A stretch of DNA of 45,237 nucleotides, filler included, from Jimgerdemannia flammicorona (taxonomy: Eukaryota), in NCBI GenBank assembly GCA_003990765.1. It is 2 parts of 2 records of this genome, joined end to end, with 100 filler letters (N's around TTAATTAATTAA, not from the genome) between each part and the next. Parts side by side here need not be neighbours in the genome. Positions count along the whole stretch, not along the records: positions 1 to 22,570 come from RBNJ01001246.1; 1 more part is not named here. One strand, given 5' to 3'. A program made the position numbers and the translations under genes. Within the stretch, counting starts at the first letter, position 1; every line of letters starts with the position of its first letter. Of the stretch, positions 956 to 42,272 are shown one piece after another. The notes under the pieces were generated by a model that searched no databases, had not been told where the DNA came from, and worked only from the letters and a program-made list of their open reading frames with translations.

Positions 956-2960
956 TTAGACCTTATGTCAGAATACCACTAGATCTGAATCAAGCCAGAA
1001 GATATTCCCAAGACTGTGTTCATGACCTCTTTTGGACTCTATGAATTCCTGGTCTTAGTATTTGGTCTCACCAATATACCCACCATATTCCAGACTCTGA
1101 TAAATAAGATATTCAAGGACTAACTATTTATTTTCCTATTGATATATCTTGACAACATCCTGATCTTTAGTACAACTAAAGAAGAATATCTCAAATATAT
1201 TCAAATAGTTCTGGAGATTCTGTGAAAATACAAGCTTTATGCTAAGCTCAAGAAGTGTGAATTCTTCAAGGAATAAGTCAAATACCTTGGCCACATTATC
1301 TCTGCACAAGAAATTTAAGTAGACCTATACAAGATAGAAGCAATTGAAGAATGGCCCATTCTGTCAAACCTCACAGAACTCTGATCCTTTCTTGGTCTAG
1401 CTGACTATTACTGCTGTTTTGTCAGAAACTTCTCTAATATTGCTGAGCCACTGACTAACCTCATGAGAAAGGCCCTGCACTCAGACCACTATATACCCTA
1501 CACCTGAGACCTCTTCTGTCAATAAGCCTTTCAAGAACTTAAGAACTATCTGACCCATGCTACAGTCCTGCATAATGCAGATCAAGGCCTAAAATTCATA
1601 GTCACCACTGATATATTGAATTTTGCCATTGGAGCAGTCCTATCACAAGATGATGGCAAAGAATATCACTCTATTGCTTTCAAGTCCCATAAGCTAGCCC
1701 CAGCTGAACAAAAGCTAGCTACTTATAAGAAGGAACTATTAGTAATAATATATACACTAGACCACTGGCAATGCTATCTAGAAGGTATTGAGTTTGATGT
1801 CATTACTGATCATCAATCTCTCAAGTATATCAACACCCAATCTACTCTGTCATGTCTACAAGCCAAGTGGAGTCTCAAGCTTCAAACCTTCAATCCAATG
1901 ATCATCTACAAGCCTGGCAAGATACTTATAGTATCAGATACCTTATTAAGATACCCAGACCTTACCACAATCATATAAGTTATCTTGGCATCAGAATTTC
2001 TAGACCAAATCAGGCAAGCTTACAAAGAAGACATAGTTGCCACTAGAGTTTTCTCAAATGAACTCAAGGATATATATACTATCAAGAACAACCTGATCTA
2101 TCATCAAGATCAAGTTTATCTATCTGAAAACATAAACCTATACTATAAGGTTTTGCAAGAACACCATAACTTCCCTCTTACTGGTCACCTGGGAATTGAG
2201 AAGACTGTCAAGAACATCCAATGCCACTACTATTGGCCAAATATGGTCAAGGAAATCAAGAACTATGTTGCCAGCTGTAATCTATGTCAGCACAACAAGT
2301 CTACCAACCAAGCATCTGCCAGTTTGCTACAACCACTGTCAATTCCTACCAAGAAGTTTGAGCAAGTCACCATGGACTTTGTAACTCAACTACTACAAAC
2401 TTAATCTGGTACTGATACTATTATTATATTCATTGACCACCTGACCAAGACTATGGTTGCTGAACCAACCACTACCAATGCTACTGGACTTGAGATTATA
2501 AGAATCTTCTTCAAGTCTATCTTCTGTTACTATGATCTACCATAAATAATTATCAGTGATTGTGACCCCAAGTTTACCAGTCACTTCTGACAAACTCTCT
2601 TCAAGACTCTAGGAACCCAATTGGCTATATCTACTGCCTTTCACCCACAAACTGATAGACAAACCAAGTATATGAACAAAACTCTAGAACAAATACTTAG
2701 AAACTATGTTTCTTATAAACAAGATGATTGGGACATCTATCTGACTTATGCAGAGTTTGTATATAATAATGCTATCCAATTATCTACTGATCTTTTCCCT
2801 TTCTGGTTACTCTATGGTCAAGATCCCAAGACCCCTGCAAGTCTATTCTCTTTTAAGAAAACCAGTCAAATACAAGTCCCAACCACCAAGAACCTTATAG
2901 ACAAAATGGATGAACTACTCAAGATTACTACTGTGAATCTTCAGAAGGCTCAACAGCATC

Positions 2961-3367
2961 CCTGTCATCCATGCACCTCTGTCCCCTTCCTTACCTCCAT
3001 ATCCAAACACTAATCCTATTCAACATAATATGACTTTCCATAGTCCCTGTGCTAATGTGTGCTACTATTATAGTGAAGCCAGTCATCAGGCTTGTGAATG
3101 TGGCAAGTCTACCCCCATATGGTAAGGAGAAGAAGCTGAAGGATTGTGAACATAATCATGCCATTACTAAGAAGTCAAGAAGATGAAGATGTTGTGTAAA
3201 GAGAAGGTTTGGTGTACTATGAGTATAAAGAGTTTGTTACAATGTCTGATGAGTTTTCCACCAATGTTACTCTATTCCTGGGTGTAATTCCCTTCTGAAA
3301 TAAGCTACAACTGCAATGAGAAGGGCCACTTGAGCAAAGAAACAAAAAAAAAAAAAAAAAAAAAAAA
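2961..3367 (+). pseudogene. Retroposed, unspliced 5' fragment of a GIS2/CNBP/Byr3-like CCHC zinc-knuckle gene
   Basis: 15-bp TSD AG(G/A)CTCAACAGCATC at 2946-2960 and 3368-3382; poly(A) tail. ATG at 3030 reads MTFHSPCANVCYYYSEASHQACECGKSTPI-C, interrupted by a GTAAGG...AG intron (3122-3304), then YNCNEKGHLSKE. Confidence 0.8.
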
Positions 3368-4171
3368 AGACTCAACAGCATCAAGTCAAGTATACTGACA
3401 AGAAATGCCATGATATCACTTATACTATTGAAGATTAAGTCCTACTATCTACTGAGAACCTCAAGATATAATCTCAAGTCAACTGTCCTTTGAATAAGTT
3501 CCAACTCAAGTATATTGAACCTTTTAAGATTACTAAACAAGTCTCTGCATCCTCCTACTATCTCAAGCTACCTGAAACCATGAGAGTATATCCAGTCTTT
3601 TATGTGTCACACCTCAAGACCTGGAACCAGTCACTACCCTACCCTGGTCAAATTCCTAAGCCTTCTACCCCTGTGATTATCAAAGACCATATTGAGTATG
3701 AAGCTGAGAAAATCCTTGACAAATGAATCTACTACCATCATTCTGAATATCTAGTCAAGTGGATGGGTTATCCTAAATATGATGCTATCTGGGAACCACT
3801 GGTCAACCTCAAGAACTCTCAAGATCTAGTTCAAGACTTCAAGGCAAAACACATTACTTAATCCCTATAGTGACTTCCTTGGATTGTTGACAATCTATGG
3901 CAATGACCAGTGTCTTATGCATCAGAAGTTTACTTTGGGACCCTGGAACCAGTAAAACATTTAATGAACAAAAAGTCTACCAAAATAAAGCTACTAGCTG
4001 GGTTCAAACTCCTCCTAGTTGATTAGTCTGATAATAGGCCCTCTGCCCTATATAAGGATGGCCAATTTCCACCAATGTGCCAATTCAAGTTTGAGAAATT
4101 TTGGTTAAGTATACCTAGTCTTATATTACCTAAGAACTTAATGAGGATATTGTTTCTTAAGGAGGGAGGGA

Positions 4172-4642: not shown

Positions 4643-7600
4643 CCCTATACCAGTCTTACCAATCTCATCTATAGAACCTTTATCACCAGCCCTTACAGAA
4701 TTGAAAATAGCTCCTATAAGAATACCTAAACTCATTCTACTTCATCTAAGATCCAGAACACTATCCTCAAGATACCCAAGCACCCCCATCTCCAGTGACA
4801 GTTCAGAAAGCAAATCAGAGTCAGAATCCAAATCAGAATCTGGACCAGAACTAGAATCAGAAGAAAGAGATAATAAAATAGCCACCTTATTACCAACCTT
4901 TGCAGGATACCCAGAGAAAGACTCCAGAAAATTTCTTAATAGAATTGAAGGAATCATAGTCCTGAGGAATCTCTCAGATAAAAGAAAAATCACCATCTAT
5001 AAGACCCAGCTCAGAGAACCAGCCAAAGGAATTTTCCACCAAACAGCAAATGACCCACATTTAGAACTAGTAAAACAGATATTAGCAGTAGCATCTTATG
5101 AGCTAGAATATGTAACCATGGTTCACTGGCTTATCAAAAAATATGCAGGAAATGAAACCCACCACAAGGTCTAAGAATCTATTATGAAGATAAAGATAAA
5201 TCTCAGATAATCACCCAGAGCCTTCTTTATAAGAATCCAGAAGAGAATACATACTGCTGGGTTCAATATCACCAACTAAGACATCATAGGTTCAATGATC
5301 TTCATGAATGGGATTCTCCTGAATATTACTTAGCATGTTTACTCTCTAAGCATCAGAAGGTCTGAAGAGCAAGTAGACATAGCTCAAGAATTCTTTGATG
5401 TCAGACAAGAAACTACCTGAATTGACTATGATAAGAAGGATGATAAGGAGGACATCTTGGTCAAAGCCCTACAAGAACTCCTTCAAGGACAAGAGAGACC
5501 TGAAGAAAGAAGAGCAGCCAAAGAAGGAAAGAAGAACAGAAGTGAAATCCAAGACCTCAGCTCTAAGTTGGACTGATTGGTTTGATAGATTGAAAAACTT
5601 ACCATATGTAAAAATTGGAGTTATTAAGATAATAGAGAATATTCTCCACAAAGGAGCCAAGGTTATTCACTAAGAGATAACAGAAACTACTAGTAAGAAG
5701 AAAGAAGATACTCTGTCTGAGACAGAGCCCAAGTCCAATGCTTCCACTATAGACAATTTGGATACTATACCACTAAATGTGATAATAAAAGAAGTGACTG
5801 AAGGGACTCAGAACTACTAAACCAAAGGAATGATATTCAGTATAAGAAGACTGAAGCCCATTCTGTTGAAGATTTCAAAGAAGCAAGTAACAGTGAAGAC
5901 TACAGTGATCTAGACTTGTACTCTACCAAGATTACTATCTGAAAAACAGTCTACCCAGCAGAAAAAAGAAAGAGACCTGTAGGAAGGCTATCCAGAAACA
6001 TCAGTAGAAGAATCATCCAAGAAGAAGATAAAGAACATGAGAAAGAACAGGTAGAAATACCTCCCAGAACTCTCTCATTTTTTATCTCCAAGACAAATGA
6101 GCTACCACCAGAAGATGAAGAAATAGAACAAGAAAAACAGGAGCCTGCTGCTCTAAAGCCCAAAAGAAGTACACCCCAAAGACCATGTCTAGAGATATCT
6201 ACAATAAAGTCTGGCAGAAGATTCAAGAGGTCAAGATGAAAGTCCCTCTCCTGCAGTTCTTGCAACTGATACCAGCTGGAGTCTAAAACAAATTACTGAA
6301 AACCACTAGGTCTAGCACTGGCCAAGTTCTCATCCCACAGTAAGAGCCAGCCCCCATACTTATCTAGGCTGCAGAGAGATATATCAGCATCTATTTATAT
6401 GGAGACATTGGAGGACAAAAGGTAAAAATCCTTATAGATACAGGAGTAGCTATCTGTGTTATTGCTAAATAATTCCTAGATACTCTCCAATGACCCATTG
6501 ATGGACTATCTAATCTTAACATTATAGTAGCAGATAGAGTCTGAACTCAACCCCTTGGAGAAGTATTAAACATCACTATTTCCCTTGAACATATTCAGTT
6601 CTTTATCCCAAAAGCTATTGTCACTGAAGCTGTTACCTATGATATGATTCTTAGTACCAACTAGATGAAGGAAATGAATATAGTTATTGATATTGGTCAA
6701 TAAGTACTCAAGTTTGACTACTGAGGCAAGAAGTACAGAGTTAAGGTAACTAGCTATAAGCAATCAAAGAAGAAGAAGATCACTATCCAGGAAGAATATG
6801 CCAGTAGTGAAGAGTCTACTATAGAGGAAGAAGAAGAATCTGAAGATAAAAATGATCCCAGACTCAATTCCCAAATTAACCTGGTGGATAATAGATCAGA
6901 AGACAATATATGGACCAAGAATACTGTCCCCATTACTATCAGAGTTATTGCAGGAGAAATCAAAGGATGCCCCATCTATCTCAGAAGACACAAGTGCCCT
7001 AAGCACTCCTCCAAGATCATTGGGACAAGGAATTTACCTGGTATAGCTTGCTCTGAGTATAGAAAGAAGAAGAAGAAATACAGACATATTCCAGAAATAC
7101 CTACAGCTGAAGCTGCAGAAGTACAAGCAATTTAGAACCAAGAATCATCTGAAAAAGAGGAAGCTCTTGACCAAGAAGTCCCTGAACAAGAAGTATCCAA
7201 AGAAGAAGAAGTCCCTGAACTCATTCCCTAGAATAATCCTTGCTGGACACCACCTGAAGATAATGACCCTTGGAATATAGAAGAAGGACTCAGTACAATC
7301 TCCATCATCCTCAAGAAAGAAACTTACCAAGAAAGGGCCTTTCAGCTAGGAAGATGTCCACATCAAATGGTCTTCCACTCTCTCCAAGACTACTGCTATC
7401 AGTGTTATCTACTAGACTAACAGAAGAGACAGAGACCCCAAAGACCAGAACTCCTGAATATAGTTGCACAGTCAACTATCTTCCAAGAGATTACCACTAA
7501 GTTACAAAGTCAATTCAGAGGACAAGGCCTCTTCACCTGAACAGAAGTATATCCATTGTTCACCCTTCCTCCAACTTATGACCAAGATGGATACCAATTC

Positions 7601-12639: not shown

Positions 12640-13826
12640 TTTTTTTTTTTTTTTATGGACTCATGTCCTGTGGAATTTTATTGGAAGGGAACCTAGACTA
12701 TATAGGTCAAAACCCTCTCCCACCACCCATCAAGCACTGTCCCCCCATTAACCTAGGCTAGCTATTATCCAGCAGCTCAACTATACCAGGCACAGCAGGG
12801 CCTATGTTGGCCCACACCTCATTCTGCATACCATGCTCTCCCTACCACCAAGGGAAACTCAACTATATGCCAATAACTGAAAGCACATGCCTGAGAACTC
12901 AATATATATACAAGGCCATGCTTGAGCTGAATAGAATAACCCCTGCCACTCTAAAGAGAATGACAGGTAAAGAAAAATTCTCATCAAAGTACAACATAGT
13001 GGATAGGGCCTGGTTCTTTCAGTTGAGGTGAGTAAAGGACTTATACATGAGGTAGGAAGAAACCCCCAATACCCCACTACTCAAGCCTGTGGGCCTCAAT
13101 CATATTGCCATGTCAGCTCCTGGTTCCAGTTGAGTACAGCCAAGATGCCTGAAATGGGTAGCCTCAGGCCCCCTGACCCTCTCTGATGACTGGGGCCCAA
13201 CTCTGCTGACCGCCAAAAGAAGCCGAGAGTGATATCTACCACCTAATCATGCCATACCAATCAAAAGGCCCCACCAAAGCAGTACCTGCCCCAGCCCTGA
13301 TGACCACCCCCAGCCTGGCATCCTACTGGTTTATCGTTATCACCCTTCTTTCTATCTGTGATAGCCATCTCCCCTCCCATTCTGACAACACTTAAAAAGC
13401 AGTCACCTACACCAGAACCATGCTTGCCAGGAAGCTTGCCAAAGCCAGAGGGCCTCACCACAGACACCAAAGACCTACAGGTAACCTATACTGAGCACTT
13501 GATGCCCAAGGTCAGCTGACTCTCTATGTAGCCTAAGACATATCGAGACACTACCTTGTTGGTGATAGCAAAAGGATGAAGGTGCTGCACCAAAACAGAT
13601 ATATATACTCCAGATGTAGCCGAAGACACCAGAAACTGTGAAAAAGTGGAGAAGACACTGATCTGACACCAATAAAGAGGCAACTCATCACTATTGCCCT
13701 CCTCCCACTATACCTATGCAGGCACAGCAAACCAACCCAAGGTAGAGGGGGTAATAATAGGGGAAAGGGGACTCGGAAGATTGCCTACCAAACCTTGTGA
13801 CTAGTAAGGTAGCAGAGAAAGGACTG
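12640..13826 (-). mobile_element. ~1.19-kb non-autonomous poly(A) retroposon (SINE-like), copy 1
   Basis: Poly-T at 12640-12654; 15-bp TSD ACCAGTATTATT(T/C)CC at 12625-12639 and 13827-13841; end-to-end homology with 41065-42268. Confidence 0.9.
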
Positions 13827-14123
13827 ACCAGTATTATTCCCAGTAAGAAGGATCTATATCATCCTTTATTCTTAGAAGCCCATTAATTCAGGAAGAATCT
13901 GCCACTAGTATAATTTCCAGTGAGCTGATTTAAAAAGAACCATATCAAATTAAGTTATCTGCTAGAAATTATATACTTTTGGAGATCATTATACTATATA
14001 AAAATTATCATGCAGCAATTGCATACTTTTGGAAATAAGACTGTTACTCAGAAATCATATACTTTTGGAGATTACCTATTACTTAAGAAGAAAACTACTT
14101 ATACTATACATAAAATTTTACCA

Positions 14124-16529: not shown

Positions 16530-19500
16530 CTACGACTTTATACACGACCCCGACGGTCCCCTTGGATCATTCTCATTATAAGTGCACACCTCCACTGTTA
16601 CTCTCGCTGGCGACAACCCACCCGACATCTCCCTTGCCTCAGGTAAGAAGCTTGCGACAGGGGACGTCGGTTCCGATGAAACGGGTGACGATGCGGGCGT
16701 CAGTGCCGGGGTCCGGGTGATGGGAGAGATAGCCGCGGGAGCTGGGGTGGCGGCGCGATTATGCTGCATGTGGGACTTGACAAGATGACCTGCCGCTAGT
16801 GCGGCACACAGGCTGAGCTCTCCGGCCATGCAAGCCGCGCAGATGATCCTCGCGAGCCGTTGGGCGTTCTTCCCAGGCTCTGTGGGGTGCGGTCCGCGGA
16901 CGCCAAGGAAGTCGAGCATGGACTGCTGCGGAGGAAGGATGGTTCCGCCGCCGATAGTTCCGACCTCGATGCTCGGCATGGTACATGAAATGTGCAGGTC
17001 GCGACCCTCGTTGACAGCAAACATGAGGGTGATGCAGTTTGAGCTCTCGACGTTCTGCGCCGGGTCCTGTCCTGTGGCGAGGTAGATGGCGGTGAGGATG
17101 TTGGCGGCGTGTGCGTTGAAGCCCCCGATGGATCCGGCCATGGCAGAACCAATGAGATTCTTGGAGATGTTGAGCTCGACGAGCGCGGCGACGGTGGTCT
17201 TGAGCACCTTCTCGACGACGTGACCGGGAATGACGGCCTCGGAGACGCACGACTTTCCGCGTCCCTCAATCCAGTTGACCGCCGCAGGCTTCTTGTCCGT
17301 GCAGTAGTTGCCCGAGAGGGAGATGATCTGCATGTCCGGGAAGTGATCCGCCATGACTGCCAGCGCTTTCTCGCACCCCTTGGAGATCATGTTCATGCCC
17401 ATGGCATCACCGGTCGTGGTTGAGAACCGGATGTATGCCAGTTTGCCGGCCAGCGCGACCTTAAGCTTTCGTAGCCTGGCGAAACGGGATGTGGAGTTGA
17501 ACGCGTCGCGCACAACCTGGCTCCCCTCCTCCTCGACCCACCGCTTGGCCGCGGCAGCGCGCGTGATGTTCGGGAACTCGACGCAAGGCCCGCGGGTCAT
17601 ACCGTCCTGCGTAATGACAGTGATGGCGCCGCCACCTGCATTGATGGCCTTGCACCCACGAGCTGTGGAAGCGACGAGGCAACCCTCGGTGGTGGCCATT
17701 GGGATATGGACAGACTCTCCGTCGATGTCTATTGGCCCGGCGACGCCCACGGGGATGGGCATGTACCCGATGACGTTCTCGCAGCAGGCGCCTATGACCT
17801 TGGAGTAGTCGTAGCTCTCATACGGGAGCAGGCTGCTCTCGAGGGATTTTGTGCGGGACCCGCGGGAAATCATGGCGCGACGTATGAAGACAGCGCGTTC
17901 AAGATCCCCAAGGACCTTCTCGAGGGCGTAAGGGGCGATTTTTCCGACATTGGCGAGAAGGAGAATCTCGTCGTCGATGAGGGTCGGGGCACCAAGGTCG
18001 GGATTCTTGAGGATCGCAACGCAATCTTCCACGCTGCGGCATTCGTCAGAGACGGGGATAGGCTCCGGCTTAGGCGCGGACTTGACTACGGGTTTGAGGG
18101 TGGGAACAGTGAGGTGTTGCTGTTGCTTGGGGAGTTCCTGGGCAGGGCGAACGGCGACGGGGGCGGCATGGGCGATGTGTGCGATATGGGCAACGGCCTT
18201 CTCTGACGGCTCAGCGGCTACCGTTTGCTTATTGAGCGACGCGGCACGAGATTGCTCGACGACGACTTGTTTGGGTTGCTTCGCAACGTTGAAGAGGTAG
18301 ATGTTGAGGAAGAGCGAGACAGACAGGCCTAGGGTGATCCATTTGGATATGATGGGATCCTGGACGTAGACGTCGTAGATATGCAACAGGGACCCAAACA
18401 GGGACCCAAACACCTTCGGCACGAACCCAGTCAGCAACCGATGCTGGGACGACATGACATGGAACAACAGTGGCGGCGTAACCTCGACGATGAGCGGCAA
18501 CTGCGCGCGCGCGCTCTGCTTATGCTGGTCGAGTAGCAGCTGCAGAACGGGGTTGATGGTCGGATCGCCGATATCGACGCGTGGGTGGATGTCGACGTGG
18601 GCCAGGCTCGGGGCCGTGGCGGCGCCCTTGACCTGGAGGGTCGTGGTGATGTTGAAGACGTGCATGATAACAAACCCGACGATCATGAGCAACTTGACGC
18701 GAGCAATGGCCGGGTTCTCGACATTGTCCTTCTTCGACAACTCGTAATTGCTATCGCTAAACGCCTTGTTCATGATTTGCTTGAAGTATGCCGGGCTCGA
18801 CGCTCTTTCTTTCTCTTTTTCAACGATGGCGGTCTTCGGGTCGCTTCCATTGATATCGCGGATGCGACGGAGCTCGAGTTTGAGAGTGAGGACGGCGGTG
18901 TAGAAGGTGAACATGAAGACGAGATCATAAAAGAGGAGGAAGGCCGACAGGAAACAGAACTCGCGCAGGCCGGGAACGCCCGAGGCGGCGCCGGCGAGGA
19001 GGACGAGGATTTCAAAGAAGACGTCGCGAGCAATGTTGCCCCCTACGGCGGAGACGGCCTCCATTACAGACTGATGCACGCTGCTCTGAACGCTCGCGGC
19101 GTCGGCGAAAGTCTGCTGTGATGCCGCCTCGGAGCTTCCCTGGAGCACGCGCTTGGTCAGGGTGTAGGGGCGATCAAAGCCGATGGTGATGACGAGGAAC
19201 GGAATCGCTTCGCTTTGGTGGGAAGAATGTGTATAGGGGGGTTTTTTTAAAAAAAAATATGTATATGTGTGTGTGACGAATAGATGGCTAAAAGTCAGCA
19301 AACAGTGGAAGATTCGACGGATTCAAGGAAACAAAATAATAGATCACCCACCTCAAAAGAACGGGATTAACAGTGCCACCGAGTAGATGGACGGTTAAAA
19401 CCGAGAGCAGGAAGGCAAAGAAACCACCAGCAAGGACGGCAGTGGCTACAATAGTAAAATGCAAGGAAAAAGAAATCCAGGACAAAAGGAATTAGATTTT

Positions 19501-20788
19501 GTATCTTTCAAAGAACAAAAATCCAAACTTTCACCTATTGCTCAAAACCACCATTTCACTCTGCAGCATCCAACCAAATCACCAGTCCCCTCCCCCTCGC
19601 CACCTATCACTTTCATGATCCCCCCACAACCCATCTCCTACCACCCAACCTACCAAGCGACGTCCTAGATCCAATTGCGCCCATGTTAACATACAGCGAT
19701 GCGAACGTGAAGATCATCATGACGTAGCCCATGAGTACCACGAAAATGTCGATACTCTCCGCATTCTGTGGAGGAGAGATCGTACACGAGTAGGGTGAGC
19801 AGGTGAGCGTCGATCATGGCGAGGGGACAAAAGATGCAAATGGCGTGAAAAGGTCGACAAAATGGGGTGAGAACGAAAAGAGGACAGGCGAAGCAAGCAA
19901 ATTAGAAGGAAAAATAATACCAGAAATACATACATCAATAAGCTCTTTAACCTTTAACACGACGTTCGCAGCAATCATGGCCAACCACGCAATGGTGCTC
20001 TTCTGATGGTGTTTCCCGCTCGATTGGCTGACGAGGCCACCGGTGTTAATGGACGCGACCTTATCCTCCCATAGATTAGCCAGCTGGGACCTGTACGGGC
20101 CGTTGGCGTCGAACGCATAGCTCAGGATGAGGGACAACGCCGAGTTAACGTTCTCCGTGGTGTTAAGTCTAAGATCCTTGAACAGGAACGAGGACGAGTC
20201 GACGTTCCGCGCGATCGTCGCGAAGATATCTCTGTCGGCGGCGAGTTTCGCCGGGTTCTTACCCCAGATCTGCAACGGTGTTTGCGTGAAGCATGGATCT
20301 TCGTCGGAGAACAGCGGATTGGAGCGGGGCCGCTTATAGCAGAGGTTGTCATTGTAGAGGTACTTGTTCACGCCGTCGGCGACAAAGAGTTCCTTCTCGA
20401 TCATTTCTTGGAACTGGAGGACAGAGGTGAGGACGGGGCGAGTGAGGACACCCGACGAGGGTTGACCCAGGGCGTTGGGCTCTACGGGGTTGGAGATGAC
20501 GATCTGTTTGAGCTTGAGGCGGACGGCGTTGGTTGGGGGGTTGGAGAGATTGTGGTCGTAGGGGAGGAACTGGTCTGTTTCGCGAGTTGCCGAGACGAAG
20601 GCAGGGTCAACGATGGACTGGGAGTTATCGACAAAGATTTCCGAGTTTTTGGCAAGGTGGAAAAGGTAAAAATAGCAGAAGGAAGCGAGGATGAGGGTGG
20701 CGACAATCATCTCGATGGGGTTCTTGGATGAGCGCTTGGCTGCGTTGTGAAGCGTACGCCTCGTGAAGCTAGAGAGTTGGCCGGACAT
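16530..20788 (-). CDS. HMG1: Class I HMG-CoA reductase, ~1247 aa; exons 20788-19934, 19765-19654, 19445-19352, 19212-16530
   Basis: Catalytic motifs CENVIG, PMATTEG, DAMGMN, CTDKK, GQDPAQN; sterol-sensing segment LLSEAIPFLVITIGF; N-terminal HPIH-like NPIEMIV. Three GT-AG introns give an in-frame 3744-nt CDS. Confidence 0.97.
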
Positions 20789-21149
20789 GCTGAGAATGTC
20801 GGTCGTGGTTGCCTTTTGGTGGTGGTGTTGTATTTGGGGGGGGGATATATAGTTCCCGGCTCTGAGGAGTGGAATGAAGGGGGGATTAGCAAATGCCAGT
20901 AGGTCTCTGATGGGTTGCGGAATAAGTAGCAAGAGGTGTCTGTACCTAGTTATGCTGGGCAAGGGGGATAGAGGTACTATTTGTGGGTCTATGGCACGCT
21001 TGTTGGGGGAGGAAGTGGACGGAAGGGCTGGAAAATACACAGAACGGGGGGGTTCATATTATCCTTAACCAAGATATGCGTACAAAGCACGGGGGGTGGG
21101 GCATGCTCGAGCCCTGGATTCAGAACGCGCCCAAAAAGAATTATAAAAA

Positions 21150-22570: not shown

Positions 22571-22670
22571 NNNNNNNNNNNNNNNNNNNNNNNNNNNNNN
22601 NNNNNNNNNNNNNNTTAATTAATTAANNNNNNNNNNNNNNNNNNNNNNNNNNNNNNNNNNNNNNNNNNNN
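22571..22670. other. Artificial contig-joining linker (44 N + TTAATTAATTAA + 44 N)
   Basis: Six-frame stop linker in a 100-bp spacer; flanking pieces are 22570 and 22567 bp and end in homopolymer runs. Confidence 0.95.
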
Positions 22671-30075: not shown

Positions 30076-31746
30076 AAGTTGCAAGCATAGCCAAGAACTG
30101 AGTCAATTCAATACTCATCTTCAAAGATCTAGTCAAGGGACAAGAACTAGATGTTCTCATAGACAGTAGAGCTGTTGGAAACTTCATCAAACAAGAACCT
30201 CATTAATAAGCTCAAGATTCTCACCAAACTAGCTAGCAAGAATGGTAGAGTTGTCACTGCAGATGGCACCACCTTACCAATCGACTCAATTGCTGCTAAA
30301 CTTCCCCTCAAGATCCAGAAGTACTGGGAATATTTAGATTTTGAGGTAGCACCACTAGGAGACCATGATCTGATTCTAGGCAAACCCTGGCTTACATGAT
30401 ACAACTCTCAGATTAATTGGATCAAGAATGAAGTCACCTTGATTCAGGATAGAGCCAACATTACCATCAAGCCAGACAAGACTCAGATGAGAATCCCAAT
30501 TGCTACCCTTTCAGCAATTCAGTTCAAGAAGGCTCTCAAGAAAGCTATCTGTGCCTTTATGGTACTGATCTGCCCAAAGAAAGAAGACAAGAAGCTATCA
30601 ATTAGTGAAAGCATTACATTACTGCTGAATAAGTACAAGAATGTCTTTCTGGACAAACTATCTGGTCTACCACCTTCAAGAGATCATGACCATAAAATCA
30701 AGTTGGTACCTGATATAGCCATACCCAAGAAGAAAATGTACTACATGTTCCTACTCAAAATTGAAGCAGTTAAGAAGAAACTCAATAAACTTATTGAGCA
30801 AGAAGCCATTCAGCCAAGCAAGTCACCCTTTGGCTCCCCAGTCCTATTTGTTAAGAAAAAGGATGACACTCTGCAAATGTGTATAGACTACCAAGCACTC
30901 AACAAGATAACAGTCAAGAACCATTATCTATTACTGCTCATAGATCAAATCTTTGATGCCCTCAAGAATGCAAAGTACTTCACTGAGATTGATCTCACCT
31001 CTTGGTATCACCTAATTCAAATCAAGTCAGAAGATATACCCAAGACTGTCTTCATGACCCCCTTTGGACTCTATGAATTCCTAGTCATGGCCTTTGGTCT
31101 CACTAATGTGCCAGCAACCTTTCAAGACCTCATGCAAACTATTTTCAAGGATCAGCTCTATATCTTTGTACTTGTATATATTGATGACATTCTGATCTTC
31201 AGTAGTACTGAAGAAGAATACCTCAAGTACATCAAACAAGTCCTCAAGATCCTCTGCAAGAACAAGCTCTATGCAAAGCTCAAGAAATGTGAATTTTTCA
31301 AAGATCAAGTCAAATATCTTGGATACATTGTATCAGCTAAAGGAATTCAAGTAGACTCAAGGAAAATACAAGCCATTGAACAGTGGTCTATACCAGCAAA
31401 CCTCACTGAACTCAGGTCCTTTCTTGATCTGGCTGGATACTACCATCGATTTATCAAGAACTTCTCTAGTATTGCAGAATCTTTGACAAACCTCCTGTGA
31501 AAGAAACCCAACTCTGACCTCTGACCTCTATGTCCCCTACATCTGGGATGCTTTCTGTCAACAAGTCTTTCAAGAACTCAAGAACTGCCTAACCCATACA
31601 TCTGTCCTTAGAAACATGGATCTAAACTTGAAGTTTATGGTCACTACAGATATATCTAACTTTGTCAAGATTATTAGCATCTTTCACCAGTAACATTTGG
31701 GTGACACAAGACTCAGACAACACTTTTACAACGTTTTTGGTGTCCG

Positions 31747-33663
31747 ATGACTAACAACATGGATGGCAATGATCGAACTGGTGAGCATACTGGCCAGGGG
31801 GGTGATGGTGCCTTTGGCTGGCAATAGGTAGGGAGGAGGGGAGATGGTTTGGGGATACCAGGGGCCTCGATGGCTAGCCGAGGCCTGGGTGGCGGAGGAA
31901 GGGGCAGTCTGAGGCAGAGAGGAGGGGAGAGGTTGACCTTTGCTGACAAGGTCAGAATGGGGAAGATGGCTTCTGGGCTAGATGGCTGGCTGGGACTGGG
32001 GAAGGCGTCGATGGCTACTGCTGGGGGTCAGGGAGGTGCAACCCGGGATACCTCTGGTGGTAGAGAAGGGACTGGAGTAGGGGCTGGAGATGTGACTATT
32101 GATGGGGCTGTGACTGGGGATCTGGCAAAAAATCCAGATGTGACGGCGGTTGGCAATTCGGGACTTGGAGTGGGTACGAGGCCTGGGGACCTGGCTGATG
32201 GGGTGACGGGCATGGTGTCAGCCCTGTTACTCAAGAAGTCAAGGTCAGAATTCGCAGTCATGATGTGCTTCCGGGGCTTGGCAGTGACAGCGAGGATGAT
32301 TTTGGGGCTGGTGGCACAGGAGGCTAAGGGAGCAGCATCGGTAAAGTTCTTGAGGGGGAAGGAAGGGGTTGAGGTGGAAGATGCCTTGTTGGCAGCCATG
32401 AAGAAGGGGGTGATGGTGGGCGGAGTTGTGGTTCCTATGGCCCGGTGCATGCGCTGGGACCCCCGAGTGGTGCAGTTGATGGTGTTGGACCTCCCGACTG
32501 TGTCGAAGGAAAGAACCAGGGAGTTGGTTGTAGAGGCAGTCAAGGAGTATGGGGAGATTGTGGATGTTGGGTTCAAGGTCTGGGAGGGCACGGAGCTCCG
32601 AACTGGCGATGTTGATGTCAGGGTGCAGCTGGCTGGGAAGGAGAATACAGGGAAGTCGAGGGACTGGCCAGCAGCGCTGAGGTGGGGACCAGTGGAGTGT
32701 AAGGTCACCAGGGTGAAGGGGACTCCAGAGGAGGAGGAGGACCTGTTGGAGGCACTGGAGGACCTGGAAGGGGCAGTGGCAAGGAGGAGATTGGCCTGGC
32801 AGGAGTTTGAGGCCAGGATGGTGGTGGGGGAGGTAGATGGGAAAAGGATCTGGATGGAGAAGGGGGCATATGAAAAGATGCAGGGAAGGAGGATCCAGAA
32901 GGAGCTGTTGGTGAAGCTGAGTGGGGGTGGGGCTGGTGGAAGCTCAGGAGAGGGGGTTGCAGGGTCACGGGAGAGCACCTGGGCTGAGGGGGGAGAGATG
33001 GCCCAGGGCAGAGTTCGGATCGGAGGTGAGGAGGGGAGGGAGGGCTATTTGGAGGTGGATGCCGAAATGGGTGAGGGTGTGCACTCTCAGTATAGTGTTC
33101 CAGATGGGGCAGAGGGAGAGGAGGAGCTGATGGATGTGCCAGATGAGGAGTGGGATGAGTCAGTGAGAAGGAGCATACTGTTGGACCCTGAGGTGAATGG
33201 AGGACAAATTGCTCAGGGGGCGGTAGAGGCAGTGGATGAGGAGAAGTAGATGTGGAAGACCTTGGAAGGGGTAGTGGCTGAAGAGCTGGGGGGTGAGGAC
33301 TTCAGGGTGTTGGAGGAGAAGCATTGGGAGGAGATCCTATGGGGGGAGGAGGTGCCAAGGAAGATGAGGAATGAGATCCTGGCAGTTCTCCTGGAGTCGG
33401 TTGAGTATCAGGTTGATGATCAAAGAGAGGAGGAACTTAGGAGGATTGTGAGTGACAGAGCGACTTTCTTGTGGAATTCGAGGAAGGGACTGGAGAAGTG
33501 GCATACTGTCTGCTTAGACTATAGGACTGATATGGAGGAAGTGGACAGGGTGGAATGTCAGGAAATCTTGGGAGCACTGAATGCTCAGGATAATGCAGAG
33601 GGTGAATTGGAAGCTGAGCAGCACTTGGATCTGGCGGGAGATGGGATGAGCATGGAATTATAG
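31747..33663 (+). pseudogene. LINE ORF1 (RRM-like core, acidic C-terminus), two premature TAG stops
   Basis: ATG at 31747 is in frame with ORFs 31849-33249 and 33250-33663; TFADKV and YGEIVDV motifs typical of ORF1 proteins. Confidence 0.85.
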
Positions 33664-33694
33664 GTTGGGGTCTCTATTGTAACATTTCTTCAAT

Positions 33695-36600
33695 ATGAAC
33701 AGTACAACTAGGATTTTCTCATTGAATATTAATGGGCTATGGGGGTCGGCTAGGAGGAAGTATATATTTGGTTGGCTTAAGGGACTGAATGCAGACCTGT
33801 TCTTACTGCAGGATGTTTGTTATGAGGTAGATGTGGACTTACAGGATTGGACTAAGGAATGGGGGGGCACAGCAGTTTGGAGGGGGAAGGTGTGTATTCT
33901 CGTTCGGAAAGGGATGGGGGACATTGGGAATATTGGACATTGGGGGTCTCAAGTGGTGTGGGGAGTGTGGAAGAGGCCTGGATGGGGCCCGCTGATGGTC
34001 GGGTCCTGTTACTGCCCAGCTGAGAGAGGGGAGAGGGTGGAATGGATCTGTGGATTGAAAGAGGCTGGTGTGCTGGGAGAAGTTGGGTTAGACTGTATGG
34101 GGGGTGACTTCAACATGGTACGAGATAAGGAGTTGGACAGAACTGATAGAGGGAGAGGAGTGCGAAGTGAAAGTGGTGGGTTGGGTGACTGATTGGAGAT
34201 GGAGAGGTTGTGTTCTCTAGTAGACTTGGGAAGACATTTTTGGGCTGATTGGTGGAGGTACACCCACTGGGCGGCAGGACTGGGCTCCAGGATTGACTGG
34301 GTGCTAATGGCAGAGTGTTGGGGAATGGATGTCTGGTCGGCACTGGAAGTCATATGGTGTCCATGGTCTGATCACTGGGGGCTGCTTGGAGGGGGGAGGT
34401 TTGGGGGTAATGAGGATGGGCCTGGATATTGGCAACTAAATTCTTCTCTGTTGGAGGATAAGGTGTTGTGGGAGGGATGGGAATCAGAGGTGGTTGGAAA
34501 TATAGGCAGGTGGCGGGAACAAGGACTGGAGATTGGAGACCACTGGAGAAGGCTAAAGGTGAAGGCTCAGGAGTATTGGAGGGAAGCTGAGAAAGGGAAG
34601 TGTGCCCAGTGAAGGCAGCGGGTGCTGTGGGCCTCGCGGCATCTGGCAGCACTCATGGGGAGATGGGCAGGTGTGCTGGAGAATGGGGCCATGACTGATT
34701 GGCATACTGCGAGGATCTGGCAGGAGGTGGAGAAGCTCAAAGGGATACTATGTAGAGAGGAGGAGGAGCAGTTACAGGGAATGGTGGCCCACCTGCGGTG
34801 GCAGGGGCTTGAAGAGGGGGAGAGGCCTATCAGATTCTTGTCACAGTTATTACAAGCATGACGAACAAGGCAGCAGTGGGAGGGGGTGTTGGATGAGAAT
34901 GGCGAGCTGGTGGTGGAGACTCCGGTGATTCTGGACCTACTGCGAACCCGGTAGGGGAATCTTTGGAGTGAGGAGGATGGAGGATTGGATGCCCTAAACA
35001 TTGAAAGACAGCTGGGGAATTGGTACCCGGACCCTGTGATGGGACTTGGGGCATTGGGGGACCTGGTGAGTGGTGAGGAGATTTGCAGAGTTGTGGCCTC
35101 AACAAGTAAGGGAATAGCTCCGAGAGAGGATGGGCTTCCCTGGGATTTTTGGCAGAAGATGACTGGGGTGGGTGAGGTGCTAGAGGAAATGATGGCTATG
35201 TGTGATGGGGTTCTTCGGTCTGGTGCCTGGATTGGGGGACAGTGCTTAGGGCTGGTCTCTTTGCTCTTTAAGGACAAGGGTAGGCAAGAGGACTGGAGGA
35301 ACTGGTGGCCAATTATGCTTCTTGACATGGACTGCAAATTGGTGACAAAAATCTTGGTGATGAGGTTGCAAGGCATCGCTCAGCAGGTTCTTGGTGAGGA
35401 ACAATGTGGGTTTGTCGGTGGTCGGTTGATTCGAGATGGGACAGCCTGGGTTCATGGAGTGATTGAAGGTGCCTGGGTGACTGGAGTGGATGGCAGATTG
35501 GTGTTTCTGGACCAAGAGAAGGCTTATGATAGAGTGCAGAGAATATGGCTGGAAGGAGTGCTGAAGCAGATTGACATCCCGCCAGGGGTCTGAAGATCAT
35601 TAATCAGCCTCTTGGAGGACAGTCAGGTGGTATTGATCATCAATGGCCACCGGGGGGTGACCTTCCCCCTGGGCCGTGGAGTACTACAAGGGGACTCCTT
35701 GTCGCCAATATTGTATGCTCTTTCCCTGGAGCCACTACTGGACAGGATTCGGCGCAAGATTGGAGGCTTGGACATCTTAGGGGTGAACTGGAAGGTGGGG
35801 GCCTTTGCTGATGATATGGTGGTCGGGCTGGGCTCCTTGGGAGATGTGGGAGAGTTGCAGAGGACTGTGGAATGGTACAAGCAGGGTTCTGGTGCTAAAC
35901 TGAACTGGCACAAATGTGAGACACTGGTGCTGGGTGCTGGGATTATTGGTGGCAATGTTATTGGGATGGTGGTACTGGCAGGTGAACCAGTGCGCTACTT
36001 GGGGATCTACTTCTCGGTGTTTGGATCTCTTCTTCCCTGGGCATAGTGGGACCATAAACTTCTGGAGTGGGGTAATGTCTTGCTGAGATGGAGAGGCCGG
36101 CATATGTCCCTTGCTGGAAGGATGATGGTGTTGAATGTGTACTGGATGCCGAAGCTGTGGTATGTTGGATATCATTTGGATTTCCCATCCTGGGTAGTTA
36201 AGGCATTGTTGAAGATGGCGAGGTCATGGATCTGGGGAGGGCAGCGAAGCCAGGTTGGTTGGGAGGTGCTCACACTGCCCTTGGAAAGAGGTGGGCTGGG
36301 CTTAGTGGACTTTACTAAGCGACTTCTATGTCTGAGAGTCTGGTGGCTGCGGAGGGCGAGCGAGCTCAGGGGGCGGGAGTGGGTGCCACTCATGCAGAGG
36401 TTGTGGGAGGTTCGGTACTCCCCATGTGGTGGCTCCGGTGATCTGCTTGCGATGGTGGCCATGGATGAGAGCAGGAAGATGTGGTTTACTGGCTTTTGGT
36501 GGGGAGTGGTAGATGGTGCTAAGAAGATTGGACTTCAGTGGCGAGGTGATGAAGCTGAGGAGGTTTGGGGACCATGGATGTGGCAGTGAGACAGGCTTCT

Positions 36601-37357
36601 ATTGGGTGGGGTCCTGGTGGAGGACTTTCAGCTTGGCGAGAGCTTGGAGTATCTGCAAGGCCTAGGTGGGGACCTGTGGCCAGAAGCCTGGCAGAGAGTT
36701 GGAATTGGAGAGGGGTGGGACTGGAATGGACTCTGGCATTGGAGCAAACAGGTGCAGCAGTGGCTGCCCCCCAAGTTCTGGGTGGTGTGGTGGCAAGTCC
36801 TATGGCAGAATATGATATTGAACTATTGGTCTGGACACTTGGTGGATGGTGGGGTGTTTGAGTGTGAGGACTGTTTCAATGTTGGTCAGGAGGGAGGAGT
36901 GATACAAACGCCTGAACATTGGCTTGGTGAATGCAAGGTTTTGGGGGAGTTTTGGAGAAGTATTGTGGACAGGGTAGGGCCAGGTGCTAGGGAAGGAGAG
37001 GAAGGGGGACGATGGGGAGTGCTCCGCCGGCGACTGGTGGGTGGGGTTGGGGATGAATGGCTGACCCTTAGTTAGGCTTTGGCTATGTGGATTGGACTAG
37101 CTGGGCATTGGGTTTATGTATTTGAGGAAGGGCACCGGGTCGGGGTTGGTGACAAGATGGCCTAGTGGGAATGGTTGATGTTGGATATTTTGAATAGCTG
37201 GTGGCAGGGTTGGGGGATAGGTGGGGGGTACCACAGGGGTCTGGTGTAGCGTATTGCCCAGAAGAGTGGTGGGAGGGTGCAGGTAGTGGGTAACTGGGTG
37301 GTGCTCAGGCAGGGGGAGGATGAGGGGGGGGGTTTGGGCCCCTGGGGCATTGGTTGA
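33695..37357 (+). pseudogene. LINE ORF2 (APE endonuclease, RT, C-terminal Cys/His motif), 10 premature stops, no frameshift
   Basis: SLNINGL, LLQD, GGDFN, SRIDW, SDH (APE); DQEKAYDRV, GVLQGDSLSP, FADD (RT); CEDC..HWLGEC. All ORF pieces share one frame; the true stop position is approximate. Confidence 0.92.
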
Positions 37358-39573
37358 GGATAGGGGTGACATTGTATTGTTTACATTATAGACTTCAGTA
37401 ATAAAGAGCAGTCCAAGAGAAAAAAAAAAAAAAGATATATCTAACTTTATCATTGGTGCAGTCATCTCTCAAGATGATGGTCAAGAATACTGACCTATTG
37501 CCTTCGAGTCAAGAAAATTGTCCCCTGCAGAATAAAAGCTAGCTACTCATGAAAAAGAACTTCTAGAAATTATGCATGCCCTCAAGACTTGGCAACACTA
37601 TCTAGAAGGAGTTGAGTTCGACATGATCACTGATCACAGATCCCTTCAGTATATCAATACTCAACCAACCCTTTTCTGCTAATAAGCCAAGTAGAGTCAA
37701 CTGCTTCAGGCCTTTACCCCAAACATTATCTACAAGTCTGGCAAAACTCTAGTTATACCAGATATACTTTCAAGAAGACCTGACCTTGCTACAATCTTAC
37801 AAGTCACTGTGGCACCCAAATTCCTCAATCAGATCAAGAAGACATATGAATAAGACTCTCTAGTTCTATAAAAGAATACTAAGGAATTTAAGAAAAAGTA
37901 CACCATTAAGGATAACCTCATGTACTATTAAGATAAAGTATATATTCTTGCTGACCCTGAACTATGGTACAAGATCCTTTATGAACATCATGACTCTCCA
38001 CTAACTTGTTACCTTGGAATTGAGAAGACTGTCAAGAATATTCAATGAGACTACTACTGGCCAAACATGCTCAAAGAAATCAAGGAGTATGTCCAAAGCT
38101 ATGATCTTTGTCAAAGAAACAAATCAAGCAACCAAGTATCTACCGGTCTTCTACAGCTCTTACCAATTCCAACCAAGAAGTTTGAGTAAGTCACAATGGA
38201 CTTCATTATACAACTCTCACAAATAAAAACAGGCTATGATGCTATTGTTGTGTTTGTAGACTGTCTTACTAAGATTACAATCACCAAGCCAACTACAACC
38301 AATGCTACTACCTCAGAAAATGCCAGAATCTTCTTCAAGACTGTCTTCTACCATTATGGACTTCCTTGAGTAATTATTAGTGACCATAACCCCAAGTTTA
38401 CAAGTCACTTCTAGAAGCACTCTTCAAGACTCTTGGAACCCAAATCACTATATCTACTACCTTCTACCCTCAAAATGATAGACAGACTAAGTGAATAAAC
38501 AAAACACTTAAACAAATACTCAGAAACTATGTGTCTTATGAGCAAGATGATTGAGACCACTATCTGACCTATACTGAGTTTGTCTACAACAATGCCATCC
38601 AATCATTAACTGGCCTTTCTCCATTTCAGCTACTTCATGGCCAAAACCCCAAGACCCCTACAAGCCTAGTCTCCTTCCAGCAATATAGTTACATACAAGT
38701 CCCCACAGCCCAGAACCTTATCAACAAAATGAATTCCCTTCTTAAGATCACCACTATGAACCTGCAAAAAGCTCAGCAATATTAAGCTAAGTATGCAGAT
38801 AAGAAGCAGTGAGATGTCATATATAACATTGGTGATATAGTTCTACTCAAAGCCAATAACATCAAGGCTCAATCTCAAGTCAACCGCTAGTCAGCCAAAT
38901 TCCAGCCCAAGTACCTTGGACCCTTTGAGATTACTGAGCAAGTCTCTACCTAGTCTTACTGTCTCAACTTGCCAACAACTATGCATATATACCCAGTATT
39001 CTATATATCACAACTCAAGGCCTGGAACCAGTTACCTCCATATCCTGGCTGAATTCTGACACCATCAGCACCAGTGATAGTTGAAGACCACATTGAGTAT
39101 AAAGTCAAGAAAATCTTAGACAAATGAGTTCAGTACTATTGCACAGAATACCTAGTCAAGTAGATGGGTTACCCTGAATATGATACTACCTGGAAACCTG
39201 CTGCCAACCTTAAGAACTCTCATGACCTCATCCAAGAGTTTGAGCAAAAAGGAACTCATTAACTGCCCATGAGGTTCTCCTCTTGAATAGTAGATGACAT
39301 ACTATGCTGATCAGGCACATTAAGCATTGGGGCACTCTAAAGAATATAGCATCAGAAATAAGAGATATGAGAACTCTATAAATCTTGTAACCAATAAGGT
39401 TCAAACCAGTTCTCATCTGATCAAGATGATACTTTAGCTCTTACCTTATACAAGGATGGCTGGTCCTTACTAATGAGCCAATATATTTTATTTGAAGTTT
39501 CTTTTAGTATTATTGTTTATTATATATAACTTTGAGAATTCAACAAGAAAATTGATTCTTAAGGAGGGGGAGA

Positions 39574-39980: not shown

Positions 39981-42237
39981 GATAGATTATATATTCATTT
40001 ATAATTACCAGAAGTACTATCTCCCTATTATCATCTACTTCATACTCCTCTGCCTCCAACAGGTCTGTCATCAGTTCATCTTAGAGCTTCTGTACCACCT
40101 TCTCTCTTTGTAGGATCTCACTTCAGTACCTCTCACTAATTATATGAAAATCTACTCTATTAAGCTCATCAGTTATAATATTTGTCAATACCTTCTATAA
40201 CTATCTCTCATTATCTATAGCCTCATCAATACTTAGAATCACCTCCTGCCTTTCAACCCTCAGCCCCTCTCAGCATCTGTCTTTACTGACTTATCTTAGT
40301 CCTCCTTTAGTATATTCTATAGTTTATCAGTTCTCTCTCCTCCTGTGGATATATCATACTGTATTTGGGCCTCCTCTACCATCACCTCATACTCAGCTAT
40401 TATACTCTATCTAGAGCCACCCTTCTTCTCTAGAATTATAGTAGAAGCTACTCTCTTCTCCTCTGCCCAAGTACTAGCTCTCAATCTAACTTCATTTATA
40501 GTATTCTCTCCCTCTGCTCTCTCTTCCAAACTCACTAACAAATCTTTCTGAAGCTGTCTCCCTTATACTCTCTTCCAGACAACCTGATCTAGTTATACTC
40601 TCTTACCATTTACTACATTTACTACTATCTTAGCCTTAAACTCCTTTCAGACTAGTCTTCTCTTCTCTACTACTCTAGTCAGATCCTCTAATATCTCTAG
40701 CAAGTTCTTCTTCTTCTCTAGTATTCTCTTCATCCTTAAGACCTTATATTCCACCAGTCTCCACTTAAGTACTACCAGTCAATCTCTTTTTTTTTCAGTA
40801 TTCTCCTTATCTACTAGTCTTACTTTTTTAGTCCTAAACTCTATATCTTCTCAGATCTGGAATTCAACATCAATCATCTCTCTATATTCCTTAATAATAT
40901 CAATAATCAGCCCCCTGACCACCTCTTTCTTCATCATAGATATATTTGCTACTATCAACTATACTATTTAGAGAGTTTCAGTATAAGCACCAAGTTATAG
41001 AAATCACTATCCTTCTCTCTATTACTCTTTTCTCCAATGCTCCTAACATCAAATCCTTCTCCTTGAGACCTTTTTCTGCTACCTTACTGATTACAATGGT
41101 TTGGTAGGTAACCTTCTGAGTCTACTTCTATAATTATTACTCCCCTTTACCTCAGGTTGGTTTGCTGTACCTATTGTAGGGCAGTGGGAGGGAGGCTATG
41201 GTGACAAGTTGCCTCTTTATTGGTGTCAGATCAGTGTCTTCTCTACTTTTTCATAGTTTTTGGTGCCTTCAGCTATATCTGGAGTATATTTGTTTTGGTG
41301 TGGTGCTTTCTTCCTTTTACCATTATCAACAAGGTACTGTCTCAATATATCTCAGGCTATATAGAGAGTCAGCTGACCTTGGGCATCAAGTACTTAGTAT
41401 AGGTTACCTGTAGGTTCTTGGTGCCTATGGTGGGGCCCTCTGGCTTTGGTGAGCTTCCCAGTGAGCATGGTTCTGATATAGGTGACTGTTTTTCAGGTAT
41501 TGTTGGGATGGGAGGGGAGATGGCCATCACAGATAGAAGGAAGAGCAATAATAGTAAACCAATAGAGTACCAGGCTAGGGACAGTTATTGGGGCTGGGGT
41601 GGGTGCTGCTTTGGTGGGGCCTTTTGATTGGTACAGTGTGGTTAGATAGTAGGTGTCACTCTCAGCTTCTTTTGGTGATTTGGTGGGTTGGGCCCTAGTC
41701 ATCAGGGGGGGTTGGGAGGCCTGAGGCTACCCATTTCAGGTATCTTGGCTGCACTCAACTGGAACCAATAGCTGATATGGTAACATGATCAAGGCCTACA
41801 GACTTGAGTAGTGGGGTATTGGGGGTCTCTTCCCGCCTTATATATAAGTCCTTTACTTATCTCAACTGAGAGAATCAGGCCCTACCCATCATGTTGTATT
41901 TTGATAAGGGTTTTTTCTCTGCCTATTATTCTCTTTAGGGTGGTAGAGGCTATTCTATTCAGCTTGGGCATAGCCTTGTATATATGTTGAGCTCTCAGGT
42001 GTATACTTTCAGTTATTGGTGTATAGTTGGATTTCCCCTAGTGGTAGAGAGAGCATAATATGCAGAATGAGGTGTGGGCTGCTATAGGCCCTGCTGTGTC
42101 TGACATAGTTAAGCTGCTAGACAATATATAGCTAGCCTAGATTAATGGGAGAGCAGTGCTTGATGGGTGGTGGGGAAGGGTTTTGGCCTATATAGCCTAG
42201 GTTCTCTTCCAATAAAAATCTGCAGAACATTGAGTCC

Positions 42238-42272
<35 letters not shown>

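Follow-up and report, generated by a model that had tools for sequence, protein, structure and literature searches.

How did part of a cellular gene, with an intron still in it and a run of A's behind it, come to lie inside a transposable element (TE) of Jimgerdemannia flammicorona, and from what kind of RNA was it copied? The insert occupies positions 2961-3368 of the window (the whole stretch of 45,237 nt analyzed here), within a decayed Ty3/gypsy element, in its integrase region (Integrase_H2C2 match, E 1.2e-20); the element has dozens of copies in the genome at 81-94% identity. Other copies of this element were found by searching the genome with the flanks of the insert, and all 15 of the 15 loci fetched carry the target once and without the insert. 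Because these empty sites accompany a flanking repeat, the insertion and its duplication are real, as a reading made before any database search (the sequence-only reading) had claimed, with coordinates that hold; up to two A's are common to repeat and tail, giving the duplication a range of 14-16 nt. The components are collected in Table 1. This Gypsy family has been hit by a LINE as well: one with A28 (L019:2030-2057) is inserted in a different copy, ~60 nt upstream of the site taken by the insert.

Table 1. Parts of the insert, its host element and the LINE of the same window, in window positions.
Feature	Position	Strand	Remarks
Host: decayed Ty3/gypsy pol (integrase region), split by the insert	1526..3860	+	limits approximate
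Left target-site duplication	2947..2960	+	14 nt; AA at 2945-2946 possibly included, hence 14-16 nt
5' leader of parent	2961..3029	+	69 nt; starts at G000:C4063:7105, a C in a pyrimidine run
Exon 1, coding part	3030..3078	+	ATG at 3030; fused exactly to exon 2
Exon 2	3079..3121	+	43 nt; completes CCHC knuckle 1
Retained intron 2	3122..3304	+	183 nt, GTAAGG..AAG (GT..AG); in-frame stop at start
Exon 3 minus its final 2 nt	3305..3341	+	37/39 nt kept
Tail	3342..3368	+	A, C, then A25 at 3344-3368; untemplated at that parent position
Right target-site duplication	3369..3382	+	one G>A change vs left repeat
Decayed full-length L1-like LINE	31649..37452	+	A tail, about 15-20 nt duplication; beyond the N gap, off contig C1246

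The genome offers a single source for the insert, G000:C4063 from base 7105, which corresponds to it in two matching pieces (92% and 91%) with E values (3.6e-104 and 3.9e-36) that exclude chance. The gene at this place consists of eight exons separated by seven introns; its product, 201 aa long, contains seven CCHC knuckles together with a Gly/Arg-rich stretch. Proteins of the CNBP/Gis2/Byr3 family are defined by about seven tandem CCHC knuckles and an RGG-like stretch, and on these features the parent is assigned to that family. Exon 6 matches zf-CCHC at E 4e-15 and has 77 homolog matches, most of the named ones fungal, with Mortierella and basidiomycete proteins leading and some carrying the names cellular nucleic acid-binding protein or Byr3. 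Whereas the parent shares the seven knuckles of CNBP/Gis2/Byr3 proteins, the insert spans under two, with the intron stop and C>T changes disrupting it, and its mutated peptide alone gives no Pfam or BLASTP signal. The peptide restored by reverting such changes, which had been likened to Gis2/Byr3/CNBP, agrees with the real parent at 39 of 43 residues, and the finding of one cellular parent in the genome search upholds the claim that the insert is a retrocopy of a CNBP/Gis2-like gene and not TE gag.

A second CNBP-like gene lies on C11308. The whole-gene search of the genome returned no further copy of the parent, so that the only retrocopy found of the C4063 gene is the odd one described here; three weak extra matches are Gly-rich stretches or a paralog (L026 and L027 were read at the match, L025 not). 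Splice joints for all seven parent introns are present in the X1 and X2 contigs (both runs are RNA only by guess), and intron 3, seen among them, is normally spliced. Contigs cover the interior of intron 1 in runs X1, X3 and X4; the insides of introns 2 and 3 have no covering contig in the RNA runs, which is not evidence of absence since contigs drop rare forms. The GC-AG intron 1, contig-covered in three runs, may often be retained (L002:1078-1533), and run X1 also contains a second allele or relative of the parent gene.

Set against this parent, the insert lacks intron 1 (398 nt, GC-AG) exactly, at 3078/3079, and the resulting exon 1/exon 2 joint is identical in the RNA contigs of X1 and X2. 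The exact loss of intron 1 means that the template was RNA, and the term "unspliced" in the sequence-only reading has to be given up, intron 1 having already been removed. The remainder of that description is visible in the comparison with the parent: an ATG, a complete first knuckle, a 183-nt GT-AG intron splitting the next Cys codon (the first of knuckle 2) and a tail joined in mid-knuckle. The parent has the same intron 2 at the same position and no A-tract where the tail begins. Intron 2 is whole in the insert, and the X1/X2 contigs show it spliced out. Exons 4-8 are missing, so the copy is not a fully processed pseudogene, which would have lost all introns and kept its own 3' end; with some introns lost, some kept, a tail and repeats, it has the makeup of a semi-processed retrocopy. 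Its templated end, at 3341, is 2 nt short of the intron-3 donor, or up to 4 if the last AA belongs to the tail.

The 381 templated bases align to the parent without gaps, and 35 of the 36 differences are C>T or G>A. By context, insert versus parent, decay has affected 20/36 CpG sites, 10/55 CpA, 5/50 CpC and 0/46 CpT, and all 18 CpG of the template are gone from the insert. The loss of all 18 points to long residence as genomic DNA in TE chromatin, and the presence of only one difference of any other kind suggests that the insertion is young and was probably struck later by cytosine-directed decay.

We conclude, with very little room for doubt, that the insert is a dead semi-processed retrocopy, copied from an RNA with intron 1 out and intron 2 kept, ending at the exon 3/intron 3 border, bearing an A tail, a target duplication and C>T decay, and made by the target-primed reverse transcription of an L1-like LINE. 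Semi-processed retrocopies are a known kind; what is unusual here is the end beside a donor. Rodent preproinsulin I, as described in two sources (PMC3449122; PMC5470649), is alike in its partly spliced pre-mRNA source, kept intron, A tail, direct repeats and new location; it reaches the 3' part of its gene and is functional, whereas the insert ends in exon 3 of 8 by a donor, is dead and is fungal. Retroposition is described as little studied in fungi (PMC5470649), and LINE-made chimeras have been reported in Magnaporthe (PMC2104539).

Machinery for such copying is at hand. The reverse transcriptase of the window's own LINE has human L1 ORF2p as its only PDB matches (5/5) and the endonuclease match is weak; this is the kind of element that could supply enzymes for the insert. 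(The gap before it, at 22571-22670 of the window, shows two runs of 44 N, and bases past 22570 are off contig C1246.) One related LINE family has 1,394 exact 3' ends. Thirty tails of that family measure 5-60 nt, with AATAAA 17-22 nt upstream in 29/30, and the flank behind the tail begins with G in 18/29, the same as at the insert. Host mRNAs have been copied as well: two RPL25 copies and one UbL40 copy, each compared with its parent, have lost all their introns and have ordinary 3' ends (3/3), and clear 15-16 nt duplications are present in two of the three. Both RPL25 copies have AATAAA about 20 nt before the end and one common pyrimidine-rich start; the UbL40 copy is fully spliced yet ends without AATAAA. 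The start of the insert's leader is probably a transcription start.

U6 snRNA retrocopies are abundant and mostly tailless (G000 loci L267-L296, L350, L351). We scored 48 copies, and at least 78 exact 3' ends are present in the genome; flanking duplications of about 15 nt were seen at 26 of the 29 loci parsed and an A tail at 0/30. Behind the U tract of 2/78 ends stands an A tract (A21, A6), both with duplications. These counts indicate that the machinery copies nuclear RNA without needing a tail and rarely gives tailed copies, and, tailed copies of nuclear RNA being rare here, the A25 of the insert was more likely already on the RNA than borrowed from a LINE. We assume from duplication size that the U6 copies and the insert come from the same LINE family; the insert's duplication resembles those of the RPL25, UbL40 and U6 copies. 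The hallmarks of a LINE retrocopy are present at the insert, namely an exactly removed intron, a duplication with an empty site, an untemplated A tail and an L1-type reverse transcriptase in the genome, and the earlier proposal that LINE machinery captured a nascent, cleaved or aborted transcript is supported to the extent that the RNA copied was incompletely processed and truncated at its 3' end.

Why intron 2 stayed may be written in the intron itself. Of the 15 introns examined, from five genes, it alone has an AAG acceptor (in that list one donor is mis-anchored and branch points are motif guesses, 7/15 having no motif match); it has no pyrimidine tract, and its best branch motif lies 55 nt from the acceptor, overlapped by a 9-bp stem (1/150 shuffles, post hoc). 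On such features slow splicing of intron 2 is plausible, but the retained form in contigs is intron 1, and deep joints span intron 2. The 9-bp stem is closed by motifs resembling a C box and a D box. A snoRNA in intron 2 gained no support, there being no Rfam match and folding z-scores of +1.43 and -0.12; five parent pieces had no match in 53 related (distant) metagenome loci, and the C/D-like boxes are not conserved there. A snoRNA in the retained intron, the mark of a snoRNA-host retroposon, was thus not found, though intron 2 may hold a lineage-specific one.

What RNA, then, ended just before a splice donor? The likelihoods that we attach to models of the 3' end are judgements and were not computed. 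The reading we prefer, possible though short of probable, is that the template was the 5' piece set free when intron 3 underwent the first catalytic step of splicing. The spliceosome would have skipped the weak intron 2, engaged intron 3 first, cut at its donor and released the 5' piece; this, shortened by 2-4 nt and given an A tail by nuclear surveillance or through an early switch off a LINE tail, would have been copied in the nucleus by an L1-like LINE, as U6 RNA often is here. The windows of 0-4 nt before the seven donors make up 2% of the pre-mRNA (a post hoc computation). Within 60 nt upstream of the templated end there is no AATAAA, which is weak evidence, the UbL40 copy being likewise without it. 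Intron 3 has the donor GTGGGT and, by motif guess, a branch site at best 52 nt before its acceptor, although one RPL25 intron has an even longer distance, 65 nt, which counts against the reading. For fission-yeast telomerase RNA, a long branch-to-acceptor distance is reported to favor release after step 1, and trimming back from the donor is described there too (PMC4299874); a long distance has also been tied to Prp43 discard of native introns (10.1101/224170), and in mouse cells 7% of nascent long reads are reported to have such step-1 ends at donors (10.1101/2020.02.11.944595). The U6 loci support copying of nuclear, non-polyadenylated RNA by local machinery, and the tailed U6 ends are a precedent, from this very genome, for A's behind an RNA end other than a poly(A) site. 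Surveillance tailing has been proposed for snRNA copies (PMC4476161) and may apply to the insert's RNA too.

A released intermediate has its difficulties. It is one event; it requires intron 3 to be engaged before intron 2; and since the copy stops slightly short of the donor, the model has to include trimming as a further step. Of three tests for a step-1 product, one gave a positive result, the end lying at the donor or trimmed back from it (2-4 nt short). The fuller proposal is that the insert preserves, as a fossil in the genome, a splicing intermediate of the first step, adenylated by surveillance and copied by a fungal L1-like element that works on nuclear, spliceosome-associated RNA, as the many U6 copies suggest; it is put forward more tentatively still.

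Known systems resemble parts of this picture. The Groups II/III snRNA retropseudogenes of Doucet et al. 2015 (poly(A)-extended, 3'-truncated) are nuclear RNAs captured by LINEs, with an A tail not at a poly(A) site and the same two explanations for it, a surveillance tail or an early template switch (PMC4476161); their substrate is a small RNA, whereas that of the insert is a piece of protein-coding pre-mRNA. Spliceosomal cleavage and discard, as in fission-yeast and Aspergillus telomerase RNA (PMC4299874), BDF2 (PMC3792478) and the Prp43 pathway (10.1101/224170), likewise gives 3' ends at or trimmed from a 5' splice site and is linked with a long branch-to-acceptor distance. Unlike the tailed insert, the mature telomerase RNA product is reported not to be polyadenylated (PMC4299874); the accessible part of the work on BDF2 spliceosome-mediated decay gives tailing no support (PMC3792478), and the available portions of all three sources describe no retrocopy. 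Human copies that are 3'-truncated are reported usually to lack tails (10.1101/2020.06.07.139212; 10.64898/2026.06.26.734816).

Cleavage and polyadenylation at a cryptic site, a possible if doubtful source of the end, would have turned exon 3 into a 37-nt last exon with intron 2 left in place, the capped, tailed RNA being copied like an mRNA, and this single event would account for both retention and truncation. The candidate parts are AATAAG at -37, at the intron-2 acceptor, as the signal, AATGAG at -21 and the GU/U-rich start of intron 3, just downstream, as the downstream element; their fit to cryptic cleavage counts against a released intermediate. The normal RPL25 end is also cut after G, a tail of at least 25 suits poly(A) polymerase, the UbL40 end shows AATAAA to be dispensable, and human poly(A) clusters are reported to peak at exon ends and intron starts, although their authors suspect mapping artefacts (10.1101/2022.05.27.493724). 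However, AATAAG lies too far upstream for the 17-22 nt spacing seen at LINE tails, AATGAG differs from AATAAA at two positions, and an end within 2-4 nt of the donor is less sharply predicted. "Prematurely polyadenylated", the wording of the sequence-only reading, names only one of three live routes.

The third of these, which we consider unlikely, takes its cue from the first letters of the tail. The RNA would have extended into intron 3, with either polyadenylation or internal priming at the ACAAAAAA that lies 31 nt (or about 80 nt) in, and a template jump, or a deletion afterwards, would have removed the stretch between. The tail begins AC followed by A's, the same letters as the parent's ACAAAAAA 31 nt further on in intron 3, and the 132-nt intron has this motif twice, where 80 kb of CpG-rich DNA gives a background of 0.1 per kb per strand. 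Among the 100 LINE tails listed, C is rare (3/100, at positions 2-5 never), and the unusual C and the motif in intron 3 also count against a released intermediate. In one fungus, LINEs are known to jump between templates (PMC2104539). Yet a second event without microhomology must land 2 nt from the donor, A6 would need growth to A25 if priming was internal, and a non-A base at tail positions 2-5 does occur in 6/100 of the LINE tails listed.

Quite improbable is a randomly broken or aborted nascent transcript that was adenylated and copied, its nearness to the donor coincidental: intron 1 out and intron 2 in is the simple 5'-to-3' order, and adenylated nuclear RNA has been copied in this genome, but the chance for that window is about 2% and nothing would make a polymerase halt there before intron 3 has been transcribed. 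A DNA-level duplication, a TE gag fragment or an assembly artefact, for which the likeness of zinc knuckles to retroviral nucleocapsids and the presence of an intron might speak, is scarcely credible: the exact exon 1/exon 2 joint refutes all three, the partly spliced state of the RNA rules out DNA duplication, the single cellular CNBP/Gis2 parent with its fungal homologs refutes gag, and the duplication with empty sites and the loss of all 18 CpG weigh the same way. Of the observations named beforehand as fatal to a retrocopy (no intron-bearing parent, a best match to TE gag, an A-tract in the parent at the tail), none was made.

A released splicing intermediate, if that is what the insert records, should have left others, and a screen for further intron-retaining retrocopies had been suggested; it was carried out in part and yielded no second case. 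Four partial genome screens gave three parent-matched ordinary mRNA copies, one parentless methyltransferase copy and two ubiquitin fragments, and no second intron-keeping or exon-end copy. The A-run screen, drawn from about 90 of 1,408 SC+A22 matches and 30 of 71 BCAG+A20 matches, covered 160 A-runs of at least 18 in 119 loci, 10 with a flanking repeat and one a host-gene copy. Within at most 1.5-1.7 kb upstream of 70/71 BCAG+A20 matches there was one RPL25 copy and no exon-end or intron-keeping copy. The seven L7Ae family matches included no copy, and 30 of 42 ubiquitin family matches, as read, comprised one full copy and the two fragments. The literature covered, itself incomplete, listed no retrocopy ending at a donor.

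Several loci met in these screens deserve mention. L045 (G000:C56:12339-13389, minus) is a copy of about 1 kb with an 18-nt duplication, A59 and AATAAA, which its motif suggests to be methyltransferase-like. It has no close parent (best 79%) and about 40 related places at 65-79%, and was therefore excluded from the parent-checked controls; its family possibly spread by retroposition. At L183/L224 (G000:C7133:6599-7219), a spliced RPL25 copy lies ~34 nt behind a LINE A tail; no duplication is apparent, and the two may have inserted in tandem or as a chimera. A tail-only insertion, nothing but A37 flanked on both sides by the same 15-nt target, lies at L157:1486-1557 (minus strand numbering). 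A spliced UbL40 mRNA fragment at L255:1490-1612 (minus strand numbering), with no tail or duplication seen, lies just downstream of a Gypsy chromodomain-like frame and may represent capture by an LTR element.

The insert itself does nothing, and its value is as the record of one molecule, with intron 1 out, intron 2 in and a cut at donor 3. It demonstrates copying of pre-mRNA in mid-processing by a fungal LINE. Should the splicing-intermediate reading be true, discarded 5' exons, once tailed, would live long enough for retroposition, retrocopies here would record splicing order and discard, more donor-ending copies should exist, and a genome with abundant U6 and mRNA copies would be a place to count such events. 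If cryptic polyadenylation made the end, the insert would be one more semi-processed pseudogene, notable mainly as fungal.

Elsewhere in the window, a 1.2-kb element with an A tail is present twice (83% identity), at 41069-42269 and 12640-13918; the copies have 17-19 nt duplications and no long ORF, and are SINE-like or non-autonomous. On the minus strand, at 16530-21058, an intact-looking HMG-CoA reductase gene (PF00368, E 2e-146) lies between TE nests.
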